Assembly: GCA_965277715.1 (NCBI GenBank)
Contig: OZ255836.1
Location: forward strand, 2,080,001 to 2,144,000
Direction of reading: 5' to 3'
DNA from: Gammaproteobacteria bacterium
GTDB taxonomy: Bacteria; Pseudomonadota; Gammaproteobacteria; JBCCGL01
DNA length: 64,000 bases
The translations under genes and the position numbers were made by a program. Positions 274 through 45,306 of this stretch are shown piece after piece (position 1 is the stretch's first letter; every line of letters starts with the position of its first letter). The notes under the pieces are model-generated. The model ran no database searches and was not told where the DNA came from. It saw nothing but the letters and a program-made list of their open reading frames with translations.

Positions 274-1052
274 CCTATATTCCGCAGTTAAAATTGTTTA
301 TATTTCTCCAAGTATTTGAAAATTTTTAGAAAAGCTATGAAATTATCCGATTCATCCGTTCACCCAAAGAGTGAAGAAAAAAACTCACCGAAAACGGGCT
401 TATCAGAAGCGATAGAAGGTCAGCTTGAAGTAGATACCTACGCAGGTAAAGTGTTTGTAGAGTGGGCCCCGGATTCGGCGGTAACGCCATTAGGTCAACT
501 GCCCTTTTTCATCCACTTTCTCAAGTGGGAAGAGCGTTTTGATCCGTGGGTGGAGGTTTGTCCGCTGAGTGATAGGAGCAACAATGCACCGGCTAAACGA
601 GATGTATTAGGCAGCCTGTTTTTATCGATACTGTCTGGGCATAGACGGTATGCGCATTTAGCGACGTTGCAAGCAGATCGGGTGAACACGAAGTTATTGG
701 GTATGGATAAAGTGGTGAGTGATGATTCGGCGATCCGTACCTTACAAAAGATGCCGGAAGAAGCGTCTATCCACTGGTTGCAGGAACACCTGCTAAGCAG
801 TTGTGATCCCCTGCTACGCTAGCCGTGGATACTGGGTGTGGATGTCACGGTAAAGCCGCTGTATGGCAGTCAGGAAGGAGCGAAAGTCGGTTACAACCCC
901 CACAAACCCGGGAGGCCTTCACACACGTATCATAACCTACCTTATAGCGAGTTTACGGTTGGTGTTGGAAGTGGAAGTACAAGCAGGCAATCAAAGTGTA
1001 GCGTGTTATTGCGCACCGGGTTTACTGGAGCTGTTGGATCGTTTGCCCGAGG
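274..1052 (+). mobile_element. IS1380-family element remnant (transposase pseudogene: in-frame stop at 820-822, frameshift near 935, 3' truncated)
   Basis: ORFs 316..822, 838.. and 863.. join into one transposase-like sequence (TPLGQLPFF...D.TVKPLYG.QEGA.VGYNP.KPGRPSH). Putative terminal sequence cctatattccgcagtt at 274. Confidence 0.75.
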
Positions 1053-1234
1053 GCTGCGTAATAAATATTTATCGTATTGCTGAAAAAAAAATACCGTAGC
1101 AACATTCACAAACTCAAGGGCAAGATCTCTCAAAAAACACTTTGTTTTTTCTATTGCTTGTATACAATCTGGATATTAGAATATACCTATTTTAACTTAG
1201 CAAACCCACTAGCACCCATCTGGAAGATTCTTTA

Positions 1235-3001
1235 GTGGCACATAACAACAAAAATAAACGAGAACTGAAAGCAATCCTATTTGCCGATGTAGTAGGCTAC
1301 ACGCGCCTAATGCAAGACAATGAAGAAGCAACTCATGTAGCAACCACCGAACTAGTCGATATTTTCACAAAGGGTTGCGATAAACTGGGTGGCGAAATGC
1401 TTGAAATAAGAGGCGATGGTATCTTTGCATTATTCACCAGTGCTATAAACTCAGTTCGGTTTGCAGATAAAACACAAGACCTTATCGAAAAACATAATCA
1501 AAAATACGAAGAGCATCGAAAAATACGTTTCCGTATAGGCATTCACTTAGGTGATGTTGTAAAAAATAATAAACACTATTATGGAGACAGTATCAATATC
1601 GCCTCACGCATTGAGGGTTTAGCCGATCCAGGTGGCGTGTGTATTTCCAGCGCAATATACGAACAAGTTAAAAGTAACGGTAGTTTTGGTTACGAATACC
1701 TCGGACCGAAAAAATTAAAAAATGTTACTGAGCCTATTAATACCTACCGAATTGTTAAGGATACAAATACAGCCACTCTTGTAGCAAGCCCACGAGACCC
1801 AGAAGAGAGAAAACAACTTATACCAGAGGAAATTCGACCTTCCGTTGCTGTTTTACCATTTAAAAACACTGATGGAAATCCAGCATTTGATTACTTTCCT
1901 GACGGTATAACTGAAGATATTATTACCAACCTATCCAGGTTTCATAATTTGTTTGTAATCGCACGGAGCTCTTCATTTGTATACAAGAATAGTGTCTTAC
2001 CTGCAAAAGTTATCGGAAGAGAGTTGAACGTTCGCTATCTAGTAGATGGTACTGTTCGCCTAGCAAATAACCGCGTCAGAGTTTCTGTCCAGCTAGTAGA
2101 CACAGACAAAGGTTCAACTATTTGGGCAGATAAATACGATCGCAGTCTTGATTATATTTTTGAGGTGCAAGATGAAATATCGGCAATTATTTGTAATATT
2201 ACTGCCGTCAAAATTGAAAAAGAAGAACGTGCCCGCTCATCACATGTCTTACCTGCAAACTTACACGCTTATGAGTATGTTCTCCAGGGTCAGCAACAAA
2301 TATATTTATATACAAGAAAAAGCGTTAGCTCGGCTCGCAAACTTTATGAATCAGCTATAAAGTATGATCCTCGCTATGCAAGAGCATTTGCATCAATGTC
2401 ACGCACTTTAAACCTAGAATGGCGATATTCATGGTCAAATAACCCAGAAGAGTCACTATCACGTGCACTTGACCTTGCTAAACAAGCTGTTTCAATGGAT
2501 GATAGCGACGCGAGAGGGCATTCTGAACTTGGTTTTGTGTACCTCTATAAAAAAGAACATGACCTATCTATTAATGCCTATGAAAAAGCTCGCATCATCA
2601 ATCCAAATGATGCTGATATTATGGCGGATATGGCTGACGCTCTTGTCCATTCAGGCAAACCTGAAGAAGCTCTAAAAATAATAAAAAAAGCTATGCACTT
2701 AAACCCATTTTATCCTGACCAGTATTTGTGGCACCTAAGCGGAGCACAGTTCAAACTAAAACAATATAGAGATGTTATATCTACAGTAAATAAAGCAAAT
2801 AACCCAACAGAAGGAGAGAGATTACTCGCAGCTAGTTTTGCCCACCTCGGCGACCTAGATAAAGCTAAGTGGTATGCCAACCGAGTTTTAGAAGCTCACC
2901 CGAATTTTTCTTTAAGGCATTGGCAAGAAATACTTCCCGACAAATACGAGGAAGATGCAAAGCACTATATCGAAGGCTTACACATGGCAGGCCTTCGATA
3001 A
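1235..3001 (+). CDS. Class III adenylate/guanylate cyclase with TolB-like and TPR domains
   Basis: AILFADVVGYT, RGDG, FRIGIHLGDV and GDSINIASRIE cyclase motifs; PSVAVLPF...DGITEDII TolB-like segment; C-terminal TPRs. Confidence 0.92.
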   Translation: MAHNNKNKRELKAILFADVVGYTRLMQDNEEATHVATTELVDIFTKGCDKLGGEMLEIRGDGIFALFTSAINSVRFADKTQDLIEKHNQKYEEHRKIRFRIGIHLGDVVKNNKHYYGDSINIASRIEGLADPGGVCISSAIYEQVKSNGSFGYEYLGPKKLKNVTEPINTYRIVKDTNTATLVASPRDPEERKQLIPEEIRPSVAVLPFKNTDGNPAFDYFPDGITEDIITNLSRFHNLFVIARSSSFVYKNSVLPAKVIGRELNVRYLVDGTVRLANNRVRVSVQLVDTDKGSTIWADKYDRSLDYIFEVQDEISAIICNITAVKIEKEERARSSHVLPANLHAYEYVLQGQQQIYLYTRKSVSSARKLYESAIKYDPRYARAFASMSRTLNLEWRYSWSNNPEESLSRALDLAKQAVSMDDSDARGHSELGFVYLYKKEHDLSINAYEKARIINPNDADIMADMADALVHSGKPEEALKIIKKAMHLNPFYPDQYLWHLSGAQFKLKQYRDVISTVNKANNPTEGERLLAASFAHLGDLDKAKWYANRVLEAHPNFSLRHWQEILPDKYEEDAKHYIEGLHMAGLR

Positions 3002-3080
3002 GATTATAAGCTAGTGCACTGAAAGTCAGTGACTTTGATAAAGCTATTTTCCCGCCAAATAGAATACATGCTGTAGACAG

Positions 3081-3530
3081 CTAACTACCTTTTACATGCA
3101 TGCCTTTTACATTCATGCCGCTAGTTTTCAGTTGCTGGTTAGCTGATAGGACAGGTGCCAAAAGTATTTCCTCAAACGCTCCTGTCTCTAAATCTAACCG
3201 AATAGAAAAATCCGCTTTATCATATGTCCAGACACGAATTCCAGCCTGCTCAATCTCTAACTCAGGGTCTGGTTCAATAACAGTCCCTGCCTCAGCCGGT
3301 GTTTGCCCATCCCCGTGCACCATAAAAATGGCAGGACGAGGCATATCATAGTAATGCCCTTCATACTCAAAGCCATAGACACGCGCCAATTGAGCATTTT
3401 CAGCGGACAATTGGCTTTGCAAAGCAGTTGTCGCCCCAGCACCTTGAGAACTCGCCCCTTCAAGCTTTAGATCGGTTACCACTCGCCCGTATAGACGAAT
3501 CACAGATTGATTCAGTAATGTTTCACTCAT
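3081..3530 (-). CDS. Hypothetical protein with repeated C-terminal GMxVK motif; candidate RiPP precursor/substrate
   Basis: 149-aa ORF with an aagaaaggaaac RBS, last gene of the ycaO-tfuA operon; ends ...SGMNVKGMHVKGS. Confidence 0.75.
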   Translation of the reverse strand: MSETLLNQSVIRLYGRVVTDLKLEGASSQGAGATTALQSQLSAENAQLARVYGFEYEGHYYDMPRPAIFMVHGDGQTPAEAGTVIEPDPELEIEQAGIRVWTYDKADFSIRLDLETGAFEEILLAPVLSANQQLKTSGMNVKGMHVKGS

Positions 3531-3561
3531 TAGTGTTTCCTTCTTTCGGTTTGTTGTTAAA

Positions 3562-4932
3562 TTAGTGTCGCAAGTTTAACCGCGCCCGCTGAACTCTTTC
3601 GTAATACGTTAGTCGGCTGTTATTTTCAGCCAACTCAGTCGGTTGCAGCTGTAGTATACGCGTGGAGTGCATGTGGCTTGTGATCTCACCAGGCGCTTCA
3701 AACTGTGGCCCAGCTTCTATTAAGCCGACACCTCTACGCGTTGTATTATGTATTATAATTTCTTTATATGCCCCTTCTGTGTATTCACAATCCACATTAA
3801 TAAGGGCTTCAACTACATCAGCATACCTAAGACACTGAGGTGATAATCTCAAACAGACTCTGGCGAGATAAGTGCCTACAGTATCACGTGCATCCATTAA
3901 TGACTGCTTAAAACCCAGCGGATCAGCCGCAAAGGCACGATCAAAGCCTACCTGGACAAGGTATTGTTTTTCTGGCACATATTCATGTTCATGTGCGAAT
4001 TCTTTTAATGGCTGGCTAATCAACTGCCTCGATAACAATATTTCCTGAAAAATATCGACAAAGATATCAAATATAGCCCCTGTCAGTGGCTGCCCTAACG
4101 CATGTTCATCACTCCAACCATCAACAAAATTCCGCATAGTCAATGTGTTAGCCGCCAGCCTAATTTGCTCATTTCTGGAGAGTTCGGCTATCCGGTTTAG
4201 CCTGTTTAGCGAATACAAATTGCCCGAGGTATTTTCCAGCAATTCATCCAATATCGAGTCAAAGTGCATCACCGCAATAATGGCCGTTAAATCCGCCGCC
4301 GATTCATGGAACCCATAGTATTCGCCTGTTTGATTTTCCGGCTCAGGTACACCCACCTGGCTATAAATAATGCCATGGCCTATCTCGTGTGCAATAACGT
4401 CAAAATTCAGGCAAAAATGACTAAAAAAGCCATCCTCCGTCGTATGGGAACCCGCCTCCATAAACCCGTAACCAATCTGCGCATTTGGAAAGTGCGGCAG
4501 TATCGCCAACTCAAGGCGGTCATAATGGTGATCAAAATGCCAGGGTATAGAGCAGCCGAAATACTGCTCCCAAACATCTAAGGTGAACCGCGCACAACCG
4601 AATAAGTGCGCCAGTTTAAATTCGTGGGAGTCAACTGGGATGTGATCAAAGTGGCCGTGCTTGTCTGGCATTGCAGGTGGATAAATATCCCCCGTCCACG
4701 GGGGCAACAGTAGATAAGAACCGTAGCTGCCACTGTGGCAACCATATTCCTTCACTTTATCAATAGGGTATAACGCATACATTCGATCATCAGCCGGGCC
4801 TGGACCAACCGTTCCAGCCGGGCAGGAAATGTATACCTGTTCCGGTTCATTATCTGCATCGACAAATGGAGCCTGTGGAAACAACCGAAACCGTGTCCCA
4901 CCTGAATCATTATATTGAACTACCTTGTCCAT
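3562..4932 (-). CDS. Zinc metallopeptidase, gluzincin (M4/M36-like)
   Basis: DVIAHEIGH (HExxH) plus downstream GFHESAAD third ligand; no N-terminal signal peptide. Confidence 0.8.
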   Translation of the reverse strand: MDKVVQYNDSGGTRFRLFPQAPFVDADNEPEQVYISCPAGTVGPGPADDRMYALYPIDKVKEYGCHSGSYGSYLLLPPWTGDIYPPAMPDKHGHFDHIPVDSHEFKLAHLFGCARFTLDVWEQYFGCSIPWHFDHHYDRLELAILPHFPNAQIGYGFMEAGSHTTEDGFFSHFCLNFDVIAHEIGHGIIYSQVGVPEPENQTGEYYGFHESAADLTAIIAVMHFDSILDELLENTSGNLYSLNRLNRIAELSRNEQIRLAANTLTMRNFVDGWSDEHALGQPLTGAIFDIFVDIFQEILLSRQLISQPLKEFAHEHEYVPEKQYLVQVGFDRAFAADPLGFKQSLMDARDTVGTYLARVCLRLSPQCLRYADVVEALINVDCEYTEGAYKEIIIHNTTRRGVGLIEAGPQFEAPGEITSHMHSTRILQLQPTELAENNSRLTYYERVQRARLNLRH

Positions 4933-4980: not shown

Positions 4981-6354
4981 TTACTGGCTTTCCCGTTTCA
5001 TTGCAAGCTCAAAAAAGTGCTGTTTTTTTACCAATTGGTAAAAATCCTCGCGCCGATGGAGGCCTATTTGCAGTAAATAATCATCAAGGTTAGCTGGAAT
5101 GCCCTTACCCAATTTTGACTCAAAATACCAGGCAAGTAATTGCGCAGGCACGATATCAGACGCTAGTTCACCAGAAATACAAGCGGCCCGCTTCGCTTCA
5201 GCACACGCTTTGAGCGCATTATACTCACCACTAAGGCGCAGTTCGTTTAACAACAAATGAACACTCTCATCATCCAGGTCATTCTCAACCGCTTTGCACA
5301 ACTGCTCATCCTGCAAAGCCTGTTGCAGGTTTTCTAGCGTCCAGTTATTTTGTTCAATCCACTGGTCAAGCTGAACACGCGTATACAACCCCAAGTTTTC
5401 CCGCCATGCTTGCAGCTGTTGGCACATTTGCCTGTCACCAATTGCTATGCGTTTGCGCCCCGCCTCGTGCAACGCCAGTTTTTTAAGACGAGCACGCAAC
5501 ATAACCTGACGATAATGTAATGGCGCCAACCTGAGTTCATCGATAATGAGCTGCTCTATACCAGCAACAAGTTGCTTACTCTCTACATGCGATTTTTCCG
5601 CTTTACCTGCCAGTGCATGCCCTGTTACAACGCTATCCCACGCCACTGTCCATTCAAATGCATAGTCGCAACGCATCGGAGCGGCTTCAGAGGAAGAAAA
5701 CGCTGCCAATGCCGCCAACAAAGCTTCAGCATCCTGACATTTTAAGTCCTGCTCCCCTCCCGGCAACCAACGTTCAAATGCCGACAACATATGCGCTTCA
5801 GCACCTGCCTGCTTCGCTGCGGCTACCACACACAACCATTGGCGTTTTTGATAAAAAATAGACTTTGCTGCCGCAATTAACAAATCCGCATCCTGCTTAC
5901 TCACCACTGATTCAGTCAGCGCACGACTTACGGTCGCACGGACATTGACCATAGGAAGAGATAATGACAAGTAGCCCAACTCTGCAGGGCCGTGTAATAC
6001 AGCTACTTCATCATCGTCTTCAAGCACACCATCGCGATAACAGGCAAAAATTTCACCCACACCCCGCATACCGAATGAATGCAATTCAGCAGCGCGCAAC
6101 GCCCCCATACTACTGGCACCAAACACATGAATACCACGCGACATAGCCCAAAGAATTTCTTTGTGCCATACGGAGGGAACACCCTCAAAATAACCATCGA
6201 TGATGGCTATCACATCAGGTGCTGTCTGTGCTGCACGGTACACATCCCCCTGCGAAACTGGGGCTTGCCATTCAACACCTTGCACCGCTTCAACCGCATC
6301 ACGGGAAATACTCGGCCCGGAAAATACAATAGTTTTCACTTGTACTTCATTCAC
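4981..6354 (-). CDS. tfuA: TfuA-like protein with C-terminal helical extension
   Basis: VF.GPS, IIDGYF...PSVWHKEIL, GASSMGALRAAEL and DDDEVAV.HGP motifs. Confidence 0.92.
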   Translation of the reverse strand: MNEVQVKTIVFSGPSISRDAVEAVQGVEWQAPVSQGDVYRAAQTAPDVIAIIDGYFEGVPSVWHKEILWAMSRGIHVFGASSMGALRAAELHSFGMRGVGEIFACYRDGVLEDDDEVAVLHGPAELGYLSLSLPMVNVRATVSRALTESVVSKQDADLLIAAAKSIFYQKRQWLCVVAAAKQAGAEAHMLSAFERWLPGGEQDLKCQDAEALLAALAAFSSSEAAPMRCDYAFEWTVAWDSVVTGHALAGKAEKSHVESKQLVAGIEQLIIDELRLAPLHYRQVMLRARLKKLALHEAGRKRIAIGDRQMCQQLQAWRENLGLYTRVQLDQWIEQNNWTLENLQQALQDEQLCKAVENDLDDESVHLLLNELRLSGEYNALKACAEAKRAACISGELASDIVPAQLLAWYFESKLGKGIPANLDDYLLQIGLHRREDFYQLVKKQHFFELAMKRESQ

Positions 6355-6401: not shown

Positions 6402-7259
6402 TCATAGTTTTTTCTTCTTATCCCGCCAGAACTCCATTTTCTTATATTTATAGTACAGGCTGTTCCCCAAAACCTCACGGGCATCCCAGGTTCTATCTCT
6501 CAGTGCAGGCCCCAGTTTATGCAAATCTGGAATACCATAGGCGCCTGCATCGTTCTCGATAATTTCTTTCTTTATTTTATCAAAATAGTGTGTTTCATTA
6601 TCACCCCATATAGATAGATCTTTACGACCGATAAAACCATATATCTGATCGATAACTTCTCCTGGCTTGGCAATTAAATCTTTTCTCTCTACCAGTAGAA
6701 GGTTTTTTTTACTTTTACTTAAATATGTTTTTTTAAGATTTGCATAACACCAACCAACGCTAGTGGGAATAGTCGGGTTCATCATTAACAGGCAGCGATT
6801 TTCATCGCTCAGTTTTTTATGCTCATTCAGCAGTTGTGCATCAATAAATGAATTGTGGTCGGGATTTTTTCGTATCAGCATAAGAAAGGACGCCAGGCAA
6901 TCTGTAATATTATCGACAGTACAGATTACTTTCATCTCCTCTTGTAAAATTTCCCTGGCAGCGTCAATAGGGTCTTTCATATGCCAGGCCCACGATTTAT
7001 CAAAAATATGCGTTTCCTCCCTGTGTTGATACATACCATCCCGCACACTGCGCCATAGATTTGGCAGTTGATCCGGGTGTTTATAAGCTTTCAGTGTTAC
7101 TGCGTTTTTCCGCCACTTGATCAAAATCTCGCTGATGATTTCACTCAATGGAGAAGCCGGAGAAACATGCATATTTTTATTTTGATTCAGGATTTCACCT
7201 AAAACTGTACTGCCGGTTCTTGGCAGCCCTGCCAGGTAATAATATTTCTTTTGCTTCAC
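6402..7259 (-). CDS. PAPS-dependent sulfotransferase
   Basis: N-terminal 5'-PSB motif AGLPRTGSTVL..ILNQN; FDKS..W motif. Confidence 0.85.
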   Translation of the reverse strand: MKQKKYYYLAGLPRTGSTVLGEILNQNKNMHVSPASPLSEIISEILIKWRKNAVTLKAYKHPDQLPNLWRSVRDGMYQHREETHIFDKSWAWHMKDPIDAAREILQEEMKVICTVDNITDCLASFLMLIRKNPDHNSFIDAQLLNEHKKLSDENRCLLMMNPTIPTSVGWCYANLKKTYLSKSKKNLLLVERKDLIAKPGEVIDQIYGFIGRKDLSIWGDNETHYFDKIKKEIIENDAGAYGIPDLHKLGPALRDRTWDAREVLGNSLYYKYKKMEFWRDKKKKL

Positions 7260-13934: not shown

Positions 13935-14465
13935 ATGCGAACCAACCTATTACTATTGATTACCCTATTGATAAATTGCCTGCCAATCTATGCGCAGGCG
14001 GTGGAAGTGGCTCCACGTATTTCAGACCGTGAAATTATAGAGTCACTCGCCAATTTACGCGGCGACATAAAAGAGCTTAAAGCGGGACAACATGCACTAA
14101 GCCAACGTATTGATGATATGAATCAGCGACTAGACCAACGCATTGATGGTATGAATCAGCAATTAGGTCAACGAATTGAGGATATGAGCCAACAACTCAG
14201 TCAGCGCATGAACCTCATTGAAAATCTGATACTTACTATGTTAGCCGCCGTTTTCGCCTTGATTGGTTATATTGTTTGGGATCGCAAAACCGCCATGCGA
14301 CCATTAGAAAACCGTTTAGCCCATATTGAATCAGCGTTGGAGCACGATTTAGAACTGAAATCACCCGAAGGTTCCCGGCTAACAAGGCTTATTCACGCGT
14401 TGAGAGAACTTGCCATTACTGATGAGAAAGTGGCTAGCGTATTACGCAGTTTTTCTCTGCTATAA
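13935..14465 (+). CDS. Membrane-anchored coiled-coil protein (signal peptide, three 11-aa repeats, TM helix), copy 1
   Basis: Start inferred from the identical N-terminus of the paralog; QRID.MNQ.L repeats; TM LILTMLAAVFALIGYIVW. Confidence 0.85.
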   Translation: MRTNLLLLITLLINCLPIYAQAVEVAPRISDREIIESLANLRGDIKELKAGQHALSQRIDDMNQRLDQRIDGMNQQLGQRIEDMSQQLSQRMNLIENLILTMLAAVFALIGYIVWDRKTAMRPLENRLAHIESALEHDLELKSPEGSRLTRLIHALRELAITDEKVASVLRSFSLL

Positions 14466-14705
14466 GCGTAACAAAACAGTTTTTTTGGTATTTTTTCACA
14501 GAAACCACTACAGAATAACGTAATATGGAAACTACAGGGACGCTCCAAAGGATTTTAAAACCAGCGGATAGTAAATGGACATATATTATCAGGGACAAAC
14601 TTATGGGCAGGGAGGCCCATTACCTCTAGATCAAAAACGCACAATAGAACCTGCAAGTCACTGTTGCTGGCATATCAAATTTAACTCTTCTATACTTCAG
14701 AAATC

Positions 14706-15302
14706 ATGCGAACCAACCTATTACTATTGATTACCCTATTGATAAATTGCCTGCCAATCTATGCGCAGGCGGTGGAAGTGGCTCCACGTATTTCAGACCG
14801 TGAAATTATAGAGTCACTCGCCAATTTACGCGGCGACATAAAAGAGCTTAAAGGTGGACAACAGGCACTCAACCAACGCATTGATGGTTTAAACCAACAG
14901 CTAAGCCAACGCATTGATGGTTTAAACCAACAGCTAAGCCAACGCATTGATGGTTTAAACCAACAGCTAAGCCAGCGCATTGATGACATGAATCAACGAC
15001 TAGACCAACGAATTGATGATATGGGTCAACAGCTCAGTCAGCGCATCAACCTTGTTGAAAATTTGATACTGACCATGTTAGCAGCTGTTTTTGGTCTAAT
15101 TGGCTATATTGTTTGGGATCGTAAAACCGCCATGCGGCCATTAGAGAATCGATTAGTCCATATCGAATCAGCACTGGAACACGATTTAGAACTGAAATCC
15201 CCCGAAGGCTCCCGACTAACGAGGCTTATTCACGCGTTGAGAGAACTTGCCGTTACTGATGAGAAAGTGGCTGGGGTATTACGCAGTTTTTCTCTGCTAT
15301 AA
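14706..15302 (+). CDS. Membrane-anchored coiled-coil protein (five 11-aa repeats), copy 2
   Basis: Paralog of 13935..14465, 22 aa longer. Confidence 0.85.
   Translation: MRTNLLLLITLLINCLPIYAQAVEVAPRISDREIIESLANLRGDIKELKGGQQALNQRIDGLNQQLSQRIDGLNQQLSQRIDGLNQQLSQRIDDMNQRLDQRIDDMGQQLSQRINLVENLILTMLAAVFGLIGYIVWDRKTAMRPLENRLVHIESALEHDLELKSPEGSRLTRLIHALRELAVTDEKVAGVLRSFSLL
14874..14972 (+). repeat. 3 x 33-bp perfect tandem repeat (QRIDGLNQQLS)
   Basis: caacgcattgatggtttaaaccaacagctaagc x3. Confidence 0.95.
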
Positions 15303-44649: not shown

Positions 44650-45306
44650 ATGACTGTTAATGATCAAATTGTGGATTCTGTCACGCAGAATACCACCTTA
44701 CTGGCGGGGAATGCGGCTCCAGAGGGTATGGGTATAGTGGATATTGTTTCCGCAAAGACCATCGGCATGTTTATGCATAATGCTGTTAGCTCGCAGCAAC
44801 AAGCGCAAATATCGTCTAATGCTTCTGTTACTGCGGTCTGCGCAAAAATGTTAAAAGTGGTGCCAGAGTTGTCAACGGCACCCACTCCAACACCAACAAC
44901 CGAAAAAAAGGCCATTCCACCATTTATGCCCTTAACAAACGCTGGAGCACCGCCACCGCCACCGTCACCTTCATTCTTACTTGATCAAGCGCAAGCCTTG
45001 GTTGATAGCGCTATTACATCAAGGTCAACACAAGAAAAAGTAGATAAAGAATCCGATAAGCAATATGAAGCAGCATTAAATCTGCTAAATAAAAAACTAA
45101 AAACAGCCACCACTGCTACAGATACAACTAAGAATACTGGCACCGGTTCTGGCGGTACTGGCACCGACACGAGTACTGGCACCGGCACGAGTACTGGCAC
45201 AAGCACGGGTACTGGCACAAGCACGGGTACTGGCACAAGCACGGGTACTGGCACAAGCACGGGTACTGGCACAGGCACGGGTACTGGTACGGGTGATGGA
45301 AACTAA
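44650..45306 (+). CDS. Reb-domain protein with Pro-rich linker and Thr/Gly repeat tail
   Basis: MTVNDQIVDSVTQ...G.A...MG...M.MHNAVS.QQ.AQ; TGTGTS repeats. Confidence 0.82.
   Translation: MTVNDQIVDSVTQNTTLLAGNAAPEGMGIVDIVSAKTIGMFMHNAVSSQQQAQISSNASVTAVCAKMLKVVPELSTAPTPTPTTEKKAIPPFMPLTNAGAPPPPPSPSFLLDQAQALVDSAITSRSTQEKVDKESDKQYEAALNLLNKKLKTATTATDTTKNTGTGSGGTGTDTSTGTGTSTGTSTGTGTSTGTGTSTGTGTSTGTGTGTGTGTGDGN
45136..45295 (+). repeat. 18-bp tandem repeats encoding TGTSTG
   Basis: actggcacaagcacgggt repeated ~4x plus degenerate flanking units. Confidence 0.9.

Follow-up and report, generated by a model that had tools for sequence, protein, structure and literature searches.

The stretch of DNA analysed here (the window, 64,000 nucleotides of contig OZ255836.1 from a gammaproteobacterium, assembly GCA_965277715.1) contains a gene for a protein of 149 residues with a short repeat at its C-terminus. 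The protein is probably a multi-core, large-leader precursor of small thioamidated peptides, which would be cut out of it by a protease. The gene closes an operon on the minus strand, whose order is YcaO-sulfotransferase-TfuA-peptidase-precursor, and a gene for a nucleotide cyclase converges on it. The evidence comes from the tails of its relatives, the conserved gene neighborhood, and the pattern of codon differences between repeat units. The analysis shows the gene and its repeat, the architecture of the family, the synteny, the enzyme families, and selection on the peptide sequence of the units; the action of YcaO and TfuA on the tail, any thioamide site, the cut positions, and the role of the products are inferred. 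Coordinates are given in Table 1.

The repeat-tailed protein

The open reading frame (ORF) has a Shine-Dalgarno-like AGGA approximately 9 nt 5' of its ATG. The protein ends in ...KTSGMNVKGMHVKGS*, which reads as SGMNVK-GMHVK-GS. Unit 1 spans G138-K142 and unit 2 spans G143-K147; each begins with Gly. The two 15-nt units are identical at 14 of 15 bases, and Tandem Repeats Finder reported positions 3088-3119 with a period of 15, 2.1 copies, 94% matches, and a score of 57. When 100,000 random 13-residue tails of its own composition were drawn, 17 had a period-5 repeat with at least 4/5 matches. The original prediction, made from the letters and the ORF list, was of a 149-residue protein with a repeated tail; the ORF is real and lies on the minus strand, and the three measures above back the repeat. 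A two-copy repeat taken alone is a weak signal. It is convincing here because the tails of relatives reach approximately 10 copies, and the window copy is a minimal, two-unit member of its family.

Contigs of four sequencing runs compared with window positions 2900-3700 showed 0-3 base differences and no insertion or deletion in the tail; those of the lowest-depth run (X6) leave approximately 3176-3426 uncovered. There are no RNA runs among the sequencing runs listed for the window DNA. DNA near-identical to positions 2900-3700 occurs in runs labelled as sponge metagenomes from four studies.

Tails across the family

A word-indexed search for homologs returned 21 proteins including the query, and an exhaustive search of 1.84 billion representatives returned 468 clusters (50% identity) at E≤1e-3 and 303 at E≤1e-10. 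The family spans at least 273 species genomes. Tail statistics were taken from 249 proteins, or 246 after removal of duplicates. A scan of one genome per species gave 273 loci, and the 80 of these that were retained underlie all per-locus counts. Most of them come from Gammaproteobacteria and Alphaproteobacteria, the latter including Paracoccus, Ruegeria, Roseovarius, Mesorhizobium, Rhizobium, and Hoeflea.

Tandem repeats were found in the tails of 216 of the 249 proteins (213 of the 246 distinct ones). The periods range from 4 to 12 residues and the copies from 1 to 10; periods of 5 (119 proteins) and 7 (46 proteins) are the commonest. Behind a conserved N-domain, the tails are wholly different between lineages. 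Examples are SGAKV (seven copies), GMSAR (six), GMNAR (seven), SGARV (eight), GANAR (eight), SGADLR (five), SGSDLRT (four), SGANLG (seven), GGGKV (nine), YSGGKA (five), SGAHARI (five), GRAQLT (five), SGGRS (six), FGQNAS (six), and GYNV (five). An alignment of homologs had been proposed as the check on the precursor idea, and a conserved N-domain with C-terminal repeats of variable copy number is what it revealed. The other 33 of the 249 relatives have a single unit and no tandem repeat. They retain the motif aromatic-S/A-G-x-x-A/V-R-h-R, for example, YSGQKVRIR or YAGQKARLR.

The units themselves follow a common pattern. Among the 213 repeat-bearing relatives, the unit begins with Gly in 198 and contains Gly in 202, and it fits G-x-x-[VALIMT]-[RKS] in 155; GMNVK and GMHVK conform. 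Many units end in Ala/Val-Arg/Lys. The last residue of the tail is Asp in 158/246 proteins and Asp or Glu in 173/246. Cysteine is found within the last 40 residues of only 8/246.

The 80 loci supplied 65 distinct arrays, and codon differences between pairs of units within an array amount to 2525 synonymous versus 109 non-synonymous; these pairwise counts are non-independent events, and the imbalance is very large. At locus L013, seven SGAKV units are identical as peptides and all seven are different as DNA. Because of this imbalance, we conclude that selection keeps the peptide sequence of each unit constant. Constant units are expected if each yields the same product and are unexpected of a linker. 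The idea that the tail is the core peptide thus gains from the repeat architecture, the synteny described below, and the selection on the units; the single-unit relatives do not fit its repeated form.

The N-terminal domain

The conserved N-domain of the relatives measures approximately 125 residues. Columns that are invariant in the 21-sequence alignment include Y52, G58, Y60, Y61, V71, H72, G73, W101, Y103, D104, D107, R111, G117, and L123. An AlphaFold2 model of the precursor (112-row alignment) had a mean predicted local distance difference test (pLDDT) score of 83.4 and a predicted template modelling (pTM) score of 0.73, and its strands and helices are ordered as far as residue 136. This agrees with the globular N-terminal part that had been read from the sequence. 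Across the last 19 residues, the block-mean pLDDT is 65 and 51, and the tail is predicted to be disordered.

The model of the N-domain gave no usable match by Foldseek on the PDB (best E 0.2) or by VIA-align against 48,161 chains (best Z 3.2, GroES-like barrels). The missing fold match does not establish the fold as new. The family profile reached a best E of 0.075 against solved structures in the PDB, and the ESM Atlas held no usable match for the precursor. When profiles were compared, no relation was detected between the N-domain and the TfuA extension described below (probability 0.15%). Pfam (E≤10) and NCBIfam (E≤0.01) contained no family for the 149-residue protein. A literature search, with supplements outside its scope, found no paper on the repeat-tailed family; the clusters may nevertheless be among the gene-cluster families listed in the supplement of PMC8120280, with the precursor left unnamed there.

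We considered whether the protein is a pentapeptide-repeat protein (PF00805), a family marked by long arrays of A(D/N)LXX pentapeptides. The Pfam search just described gave no such hit for the window protein, and a precomputed PF00805 label was present on one of the 21 relatives. A fixed five-residue β-helix turn does not fit, because the repeat periods range from 4 to 12 residues. There are also 43 relatives of at least 250 residues, many with an insertion of approximately 100-250 residues following the first 25-50 residues of the N-domain; it often holds a GD-x-VLV...NG-hY motif. These were considered as enzyme fusions and rejected, as BLASTP against seven window proteins matched the precursor only.

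The operon and its conservation

The gaps in the operon, from YcaO to the precursor, are 78, 47, 48, and 31 nt, and 79 nt separate the precursor from the convergent cyclase gene. Because the operon gaps are so short, there is no space for another small precursor gene. The precursor is the sole unassigned ORF in the operon. Overall, the window carries what appears to be a YcaO-TfuA pathway for a peptide that is ribosomally synthesized and modified after translation (RiPP): YcaO lies beside TfuA, and the gene-encoded candidate precursor has a leader and a variable core.

Neighbors were counted by tblastn of the window proteins against the 80 loci. The peptidase was found in 73, TfuA in 67, YcaO in 64, the cyclase in 74, and the sulfotransferase in 1. 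The gene order is mostly YcaO-TfuA-peptidase-precursor on one strand, and it holds across classes and many genera. Six of the 16 loci without YcaO end at a contig edge upstream (L023, L047, L050, L056, L060, and L078). The claim that homologs occur near ycaO and tfuA therefore holds for these majorities; it does not extend to ten loci that lack both genes.

The enzymes

The YcaO and TfuA genes of the window lie on the same strand in one operon, with only the sulfotransferase gene between them. YcaO scored 208.1 bits with TIGR00702, above the cut-off of 75.65. The best-scoring NCBIfam models for YcaO and TfuA were those of the McrA-glycine system, TIGR03266 and NF033432. Both scores are under the cut-offs (228 versus 365 bits and 209.6 versus 235.2 bits, respectively), and membership in that system was rejected. 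Judged from these family assignments, a YcaO that is paired with TfuA would be expected to carry out thioamidation.

The TfuA protein is long. Its C-terminal extension of approximately 240 residues (216-457, window 4981-5706, minus strand) had no Pfam match, and a sequence search of the PDB gave a best E of 0.87. The ESM Atlas returned only other TfuA proteins of 450-459 residues (score 0.77); the extension is common to such TfuA proteins of Pseudomonadota. Short TfuA proteins are suggested for loci L048, L053, L061, and L080 because the TfuA matches there cover only approximately 700 nt.

The peptidase is predicted to fold like members of the thermolysin clan and shares their zinc site, without belonging to either of the Pfam families concerned. 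Residues H182, E183, H186, E210, and D214 are invariant in 41 sequences, and these include the HExxH motif plus the downstream Glu ligand. The AlphaFold2 model (pLDDT 84.6, pTM 0.87) matched the M36 fungalysin 7qfy best by Foldseek (E 5.1e-07), and thermolysin 4tln matched with E 2.9e-06 and a template modelling score of 0.64 by target. The first 26 PDB chains (E 5.1e-07 to 8.8e-04) were all M36 or M4. The Pfam scores are under the gathering cut-offs (14 versus 23.3 bits for M36 and 12.7 versus 22.4 for M4), and the peptidase sequence gave no match to solved structures. Its N-terminus, read by eye, has no hydrophobic signal-like stretch.

The sulfotransferase gene looks like an insertion into the operon and is unusual for the family. 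The single homolog among the 80 loci is encoded on the strand opposite to the precursor, approximately 6 kb away from it and not between ycaO and tfuA. The protein belongs to an abundant family of approximately 285 residues with 62-78% identity, and some members are named from metagenome-assembled genomes of Planctomycetota and Gammaproteobacteria. A tailoring role was considered and is doubtful on these grounds.

Table 1. Features of the window discussed in the text.
Feature	Coordinates	Strand	Basis
Repeat-tailed precursor protein (proposed), 149 aa	3081..3530	-	ORF, ATG start; stop codon 3081-3083
Conserved folded N-domain, residues 1-124, proposed leader/recognition domain	3159..3530	-	alignment and AlphaFold2
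Variable linker, residues 125-137, APVLSANQQLKTS	3120..3158	-	unconserved in 21-sequence alignment
Tandem units GMNVK and GMHVK, 5 residues each, proposed as core peptides	3090..3119	-	repeat analyses; followed by GS at 3084-3089
Thermolysin-like HExxH metallopeptidase, 456 aa	3562..4932	-	zinc motif and fold match
Long TfuA, 457 aa	4981..6354	-	PF07812, E 2.5e-48, domain residues 53-171
Sulfotransferase, 285 aa, between ycaO and tfuA	6402..7259	-	PF00685, E 1.9e-09
YcaO, 417 aa	7338..8591	-	PF02624, E 5.2e-75, profile positions 1-325 of 325
Class III nucleotide cyclase, TolB_N/FlgO-like middle, TPR repeats, 588 aa	1235..3001	+	PF00211, E 2.6e-13, plus TPR families

The cyclase-TPR neighbor

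The most constant partner of the precursor is the cyclase. A full-length ortholog with 31-62% identity is what was counted in the 74 loci, and the adjacency to the precursor is kept in both orientations. Residues D18, D61, and R125 are invariant in 40 sequences, and N121 is nearly so; we take these four to be the residues that serve metal binding and the transition state in class III cyclases. In four genomes with up to 37 paralogs, the top match scored 863-907 bits and the next one ≤557 bits, and the coordinates at L009 confirm that the best match is the neighbor of the precursor. The neighboring cyclase of the Rhizobium-type loci is less closely related (513 bits). No cyclase lies within 8 kb at L062, L067, and L071, although these three loci have YcaO, TfuA, and the protease.

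The NCBIfam model TIGR04510 (putative peptide modification system cyclase) matched the TPR part only, with 46.7 bits versus a cut-off of 400, and a weak sub-threshold match to TIGR03903 was also seen. A literature search on the TIGR04510 names returned no paper. Complex prediction with the full-length cyclase and the precursor gave 0.00 and 0.00 (mark 0.32) and was used neither for nor against an interaction.

We also considered a defence system and did not adopt this reading: beyond weak matches of the PycC type to the cyclase domain (best E 2.9e-09) and a single match to TfuA (E 0.0089), the PADLOC defence models gave nothing.

Proposed pathway

In the pathway that we propose, the folded N-domain of approximately 124 residues would serve as a large leader or docking domain, followed by the variable linker and the disordered core tail. 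YcaO would activate one backbone amide per unit with ATP, and TfuA would supply sulfide, giving one thioamide per unit. The thermolysin-like protease, taken as cytoplasmic, would free the tail from the N-domain and probably also cut between the units, to yield thioamidated peptides of approximately 5-7 residues. In many relatives, a GNAT acetyltransferase may cap the new N-terminus. The adjacent cyclase-TPR protein would regulate the system or respond to it. The window units GMNVK and GMHVK lack Cys, Ser, and Thr, which excludes azoline formation inside them.

The thioamide of McrA sits on Gly. Given the McrA-like enzymes and the near-invariant Gly of the units, Gly is by analogy an attractive site. 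It cannot be the universal one, however, because 11 of the 213 units have no Gly and some of these occur beside TfuA: loci L050, L062, and L071 adjoin TfuA, and L062 and L071 adjoin YcaO too. Gly, hinted at as the thioamidation site in the original prediction, is thus a candidate only. The precedent of the thiovarsolins would point instead to the hydrophobic-basic bond at unit positions 4-5.

Genes for GNAT acetyltransferases adjoin the cyclase or precursor gene and fall into two families, one found in 22 and the other in 14 of the 80 loci (for example, L001 10351-11043 and L002 8507-9082, with 34 further loci). They make up a sixth recurrent component of the system. These genes fit the capping of a newly made N-terminus. 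No GNAT gene was found in the window. Two broken ORFs lie upstream of the cyclase gene (316-1083, plus strand), at the position where the closest loci, L001 and L007, have a GNAT gene; the first of them has a weak IS1380 transposase match (18.6 bits versus a cut-off of 180).

Weighing the alternatives

Several points weigh against the precursor reading. The window array has two units only, and the selection argument rests on the relatives because the two window units differ by one non-synonymous and no synonymous base. The ten loci mentioned above have neither YcaO nor TfuA in the DNA examined, and the two enzymes are dispensable for the family. In nine of the ten, from Rhizobium and some Mesorhizobium, the genes run cyclase-peptidase-precursor. 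Of five genomes with such loci, four have TfuA elsewhere and one, whose completeness is not known, has none. The peptidase profile matched none of three Paracoccus genomes, in a search that had no positive control among the genomes covered. ORF clustering of the 80 loci found no conserved exporter near the precursor; an ABC ATPase cluster occurs in 17 loci, with varying distance, length, and strand. YcaO enzymes are also described as thioamidating folded proteins, uL16 among them, that are not cut afterwards (PMC13063428). Finally, the conservation of the N-domain, which has invariant His, Asp, Trp, and Tyr residues, goes far beyond that of a usual leader, and because of this it may have a function of its own.

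One reading, which we regard as possible though not probable, is that the constant core consists of the repeat-tailed protein and its dedicated cyclase-TPR protein, forming a module for peptide-to-cyclic-nucleotide signalling that is apparently intracellular. The protease would meter short peptides from the multi-copy tail. YcaO/TfuA, GNAT, or other enzymes would decorate these in a lineage-specific manner, and the TPR domain of the cyclase would read the peptides or the conserved acidic C-terminal end. Such a module would parallel, in Proteobacteria, the peptide-TPR receptor systems of Firmicutes, differing from them in having a cyclic nucleotide as output. The gene losses favor a role of this kind: whole lineages are without YcaO/TfuA or the protease, while no partner is as constant as the cyclase. 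The lack of a conserved exporter favors it as well.

It is rather unlikely that the 149-residue protein does work of its own, for instance as a partner or regulator of the cyclase, with a tail that is thioamidated while attached, as in McrA and uL16, and with a protease that controls its level or activates it by trimming. The strong conservation of H72, W101, Y103, D104, and D107 and the confident fold would suit a working protein, as would the best scores of YcaO and TfuA with the McrA-glycine models, though below the cut-offs, and a cyclase neighbor with a dedicated ortholog group. The uL16 precedent of a YcaO acting on a folded protein (PMC13063428) and the three Paracoccus genomes without a peptidase match, given the missing control, point the same way. 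An Asp or Glu at the end of 173/246 tails would be needless for the release of small units. However, the unit sequence, period, and copy number shift among close relatives with the peptide units of an array identical, which is the pattern of a multi-core precursor. A dedicated endopeptidase is encoded directly upstream in 73/80 loci, and GNAT genes are present in 36/80; both count against this reading.

We consider it unlikely that the core system is made of the protease, the repeat protein, and the cyclase, with the cut peptides, unmodified or variously decorated, or the leftover protein controlling the cyclase and with YcaO and TfuA as an optional, stabilizing add-on. This explanation shades into the signalling module described above. 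The nine cyclase-peptidase-precursor loci with no YcaO or TfuA nearby, and the distant or missing TfuA of the five genomes, speak for it. The retained catalytic Asp, Asp, Asn, and Arg residues of the cyclase, the adjacency in both orientations, and the missing exporter are also consistent with it. Binding of the cyclase to a peptide or protein is purely conjectural, however, and cyclase/TPR proteins accompany other peptide-modification clusters as presumed regulators, as the weak TIGR04510 and TIGR03903 matches hint. The three loci that have YcaO, TfuA, and the protease without a nearby cyclase also argue against it.

It is very improbable, and already disfavored, that the repeat is incidental low-complexity sequence left by replication slippage and that YcaO/TfuA have their true substrate encoded at another place: the 14/15 identity of the window units is what recent slippage would give, 33/249 relatives are repeat-less, and in E. 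coli the YcaO that forms a thioamide has a substrate whose gene is distant (PMC13063428), but the units of relatives are scrambled synonymously with the peptide kept, the single-unit relatives preserve their motif, the synteny extends across classes, and the operon has no room for another ORF.

Comparison with known systems

The closest described system is the thiovarsolin pathway, with the precursor VarA, the YcaO protein VarY, and the TfuA protein VarT. Thiovarsolins are thioamidated tripeptides of Streptomyces varsoviensis made with YcaO and TfuA from a precursor with 0-5 repeats (PMC6511847). In both systems, a YcaO-TfuA pair lies beside a precursor with a short-repeat core, with 0-5 copies there (PMC6511847) and from 1 to approximately 10 here. 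The thioamide there precedes Arg (PMC6511847), and many units here end in Ala/Val-Arg/Lys. Unlike VarA, a short peptide with an ordinary leader that we compared by its description, the protein described here has a folded leader of approximately 124 residues with no matched fold. The var cluster is described as having no protease (PMC6511847), whereas a dedicated thermolysin-like protease and a cyclase-TPR protein are linked to the precursor here. The thiovarsolin hosts are Actinobacteria; the family here is found in Alpha- and Gammaproteobacteria. The family is thus set apart by its folded leader, thermolysin-like protease, cyclase-TPR neighbor, and proteobacterial range.

The McrA thioglycine system differs from this one in three respects: the scores of both of its models are below the cut-offs here, the substrate is not McrA, and 11/213 units are Gly-less. 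NHLP/Nif11 large-leader RiPP precursors have a conserved leader of approximately 80-120 residues and a hypervariable C-terminal core. The present family is similar in having a conserved leader followed by a hypervariable core. To our knowledge, NHLP/Nif11 families as a rule have no tandem multi-core tails; membership of the 149-residue protein was rejected, as it matched no Pfam or NCBIfam family at the thresholds given above. Cyanobactin precursors and the BURP-domain/lyciumin precursors of plants carry several copies of a short core per polypeptide, and in the latter the folded BURP domain is fused to the cores. The chemistry and enzymes differ here, and nothing suggests a catalytic N-domain. 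The peptidase resembles thermolysin (M4) and fungalysin (M36) in its invariant HExxH...E zinc site and matching fold; unlike them, it has 456 residues versus 298-391 for the matched mature enzymes and scores below the Pfam cut-offs.

Other features of the window

A 6S RNA (RF00013) was found at 61768-61952 on the plus strand with 76.9 bits. Two regions hold coding-looking tandem repeats: 14102-15046, with units of 33/66 nt in up to 3.4 copies and 98% matches, and 45154-45293, with 18-nt units in 7.4 copies.

Significance

Thioamidated ribosomal peptides are known almost solely from Actinobacteria. A survey reported more than a thousand proteobacterial TfuA clusters without assigned products, and the word "repeat" does not occur in its main text (PMC8120280). 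The original prediction that precursor finders limited to short ORFs would miss the gene fits this, as it fits the absence of a Pfam or NCBIfam family; a precursor of this type is invisible to such finders. The peptides may be signals rather than antibiotics, because of the tight link to the cyclase and because no conserved exporter was found. If the reading as a multi-core, large-leader precursor is true, the family would give many proteobacterial TfuA clusters a substrate. It occurs in readily cultured, genetically tractable bacteria, namely Paracoccus denitrificans, Ruegeria, Mesorhizobium, and Rhizobium.

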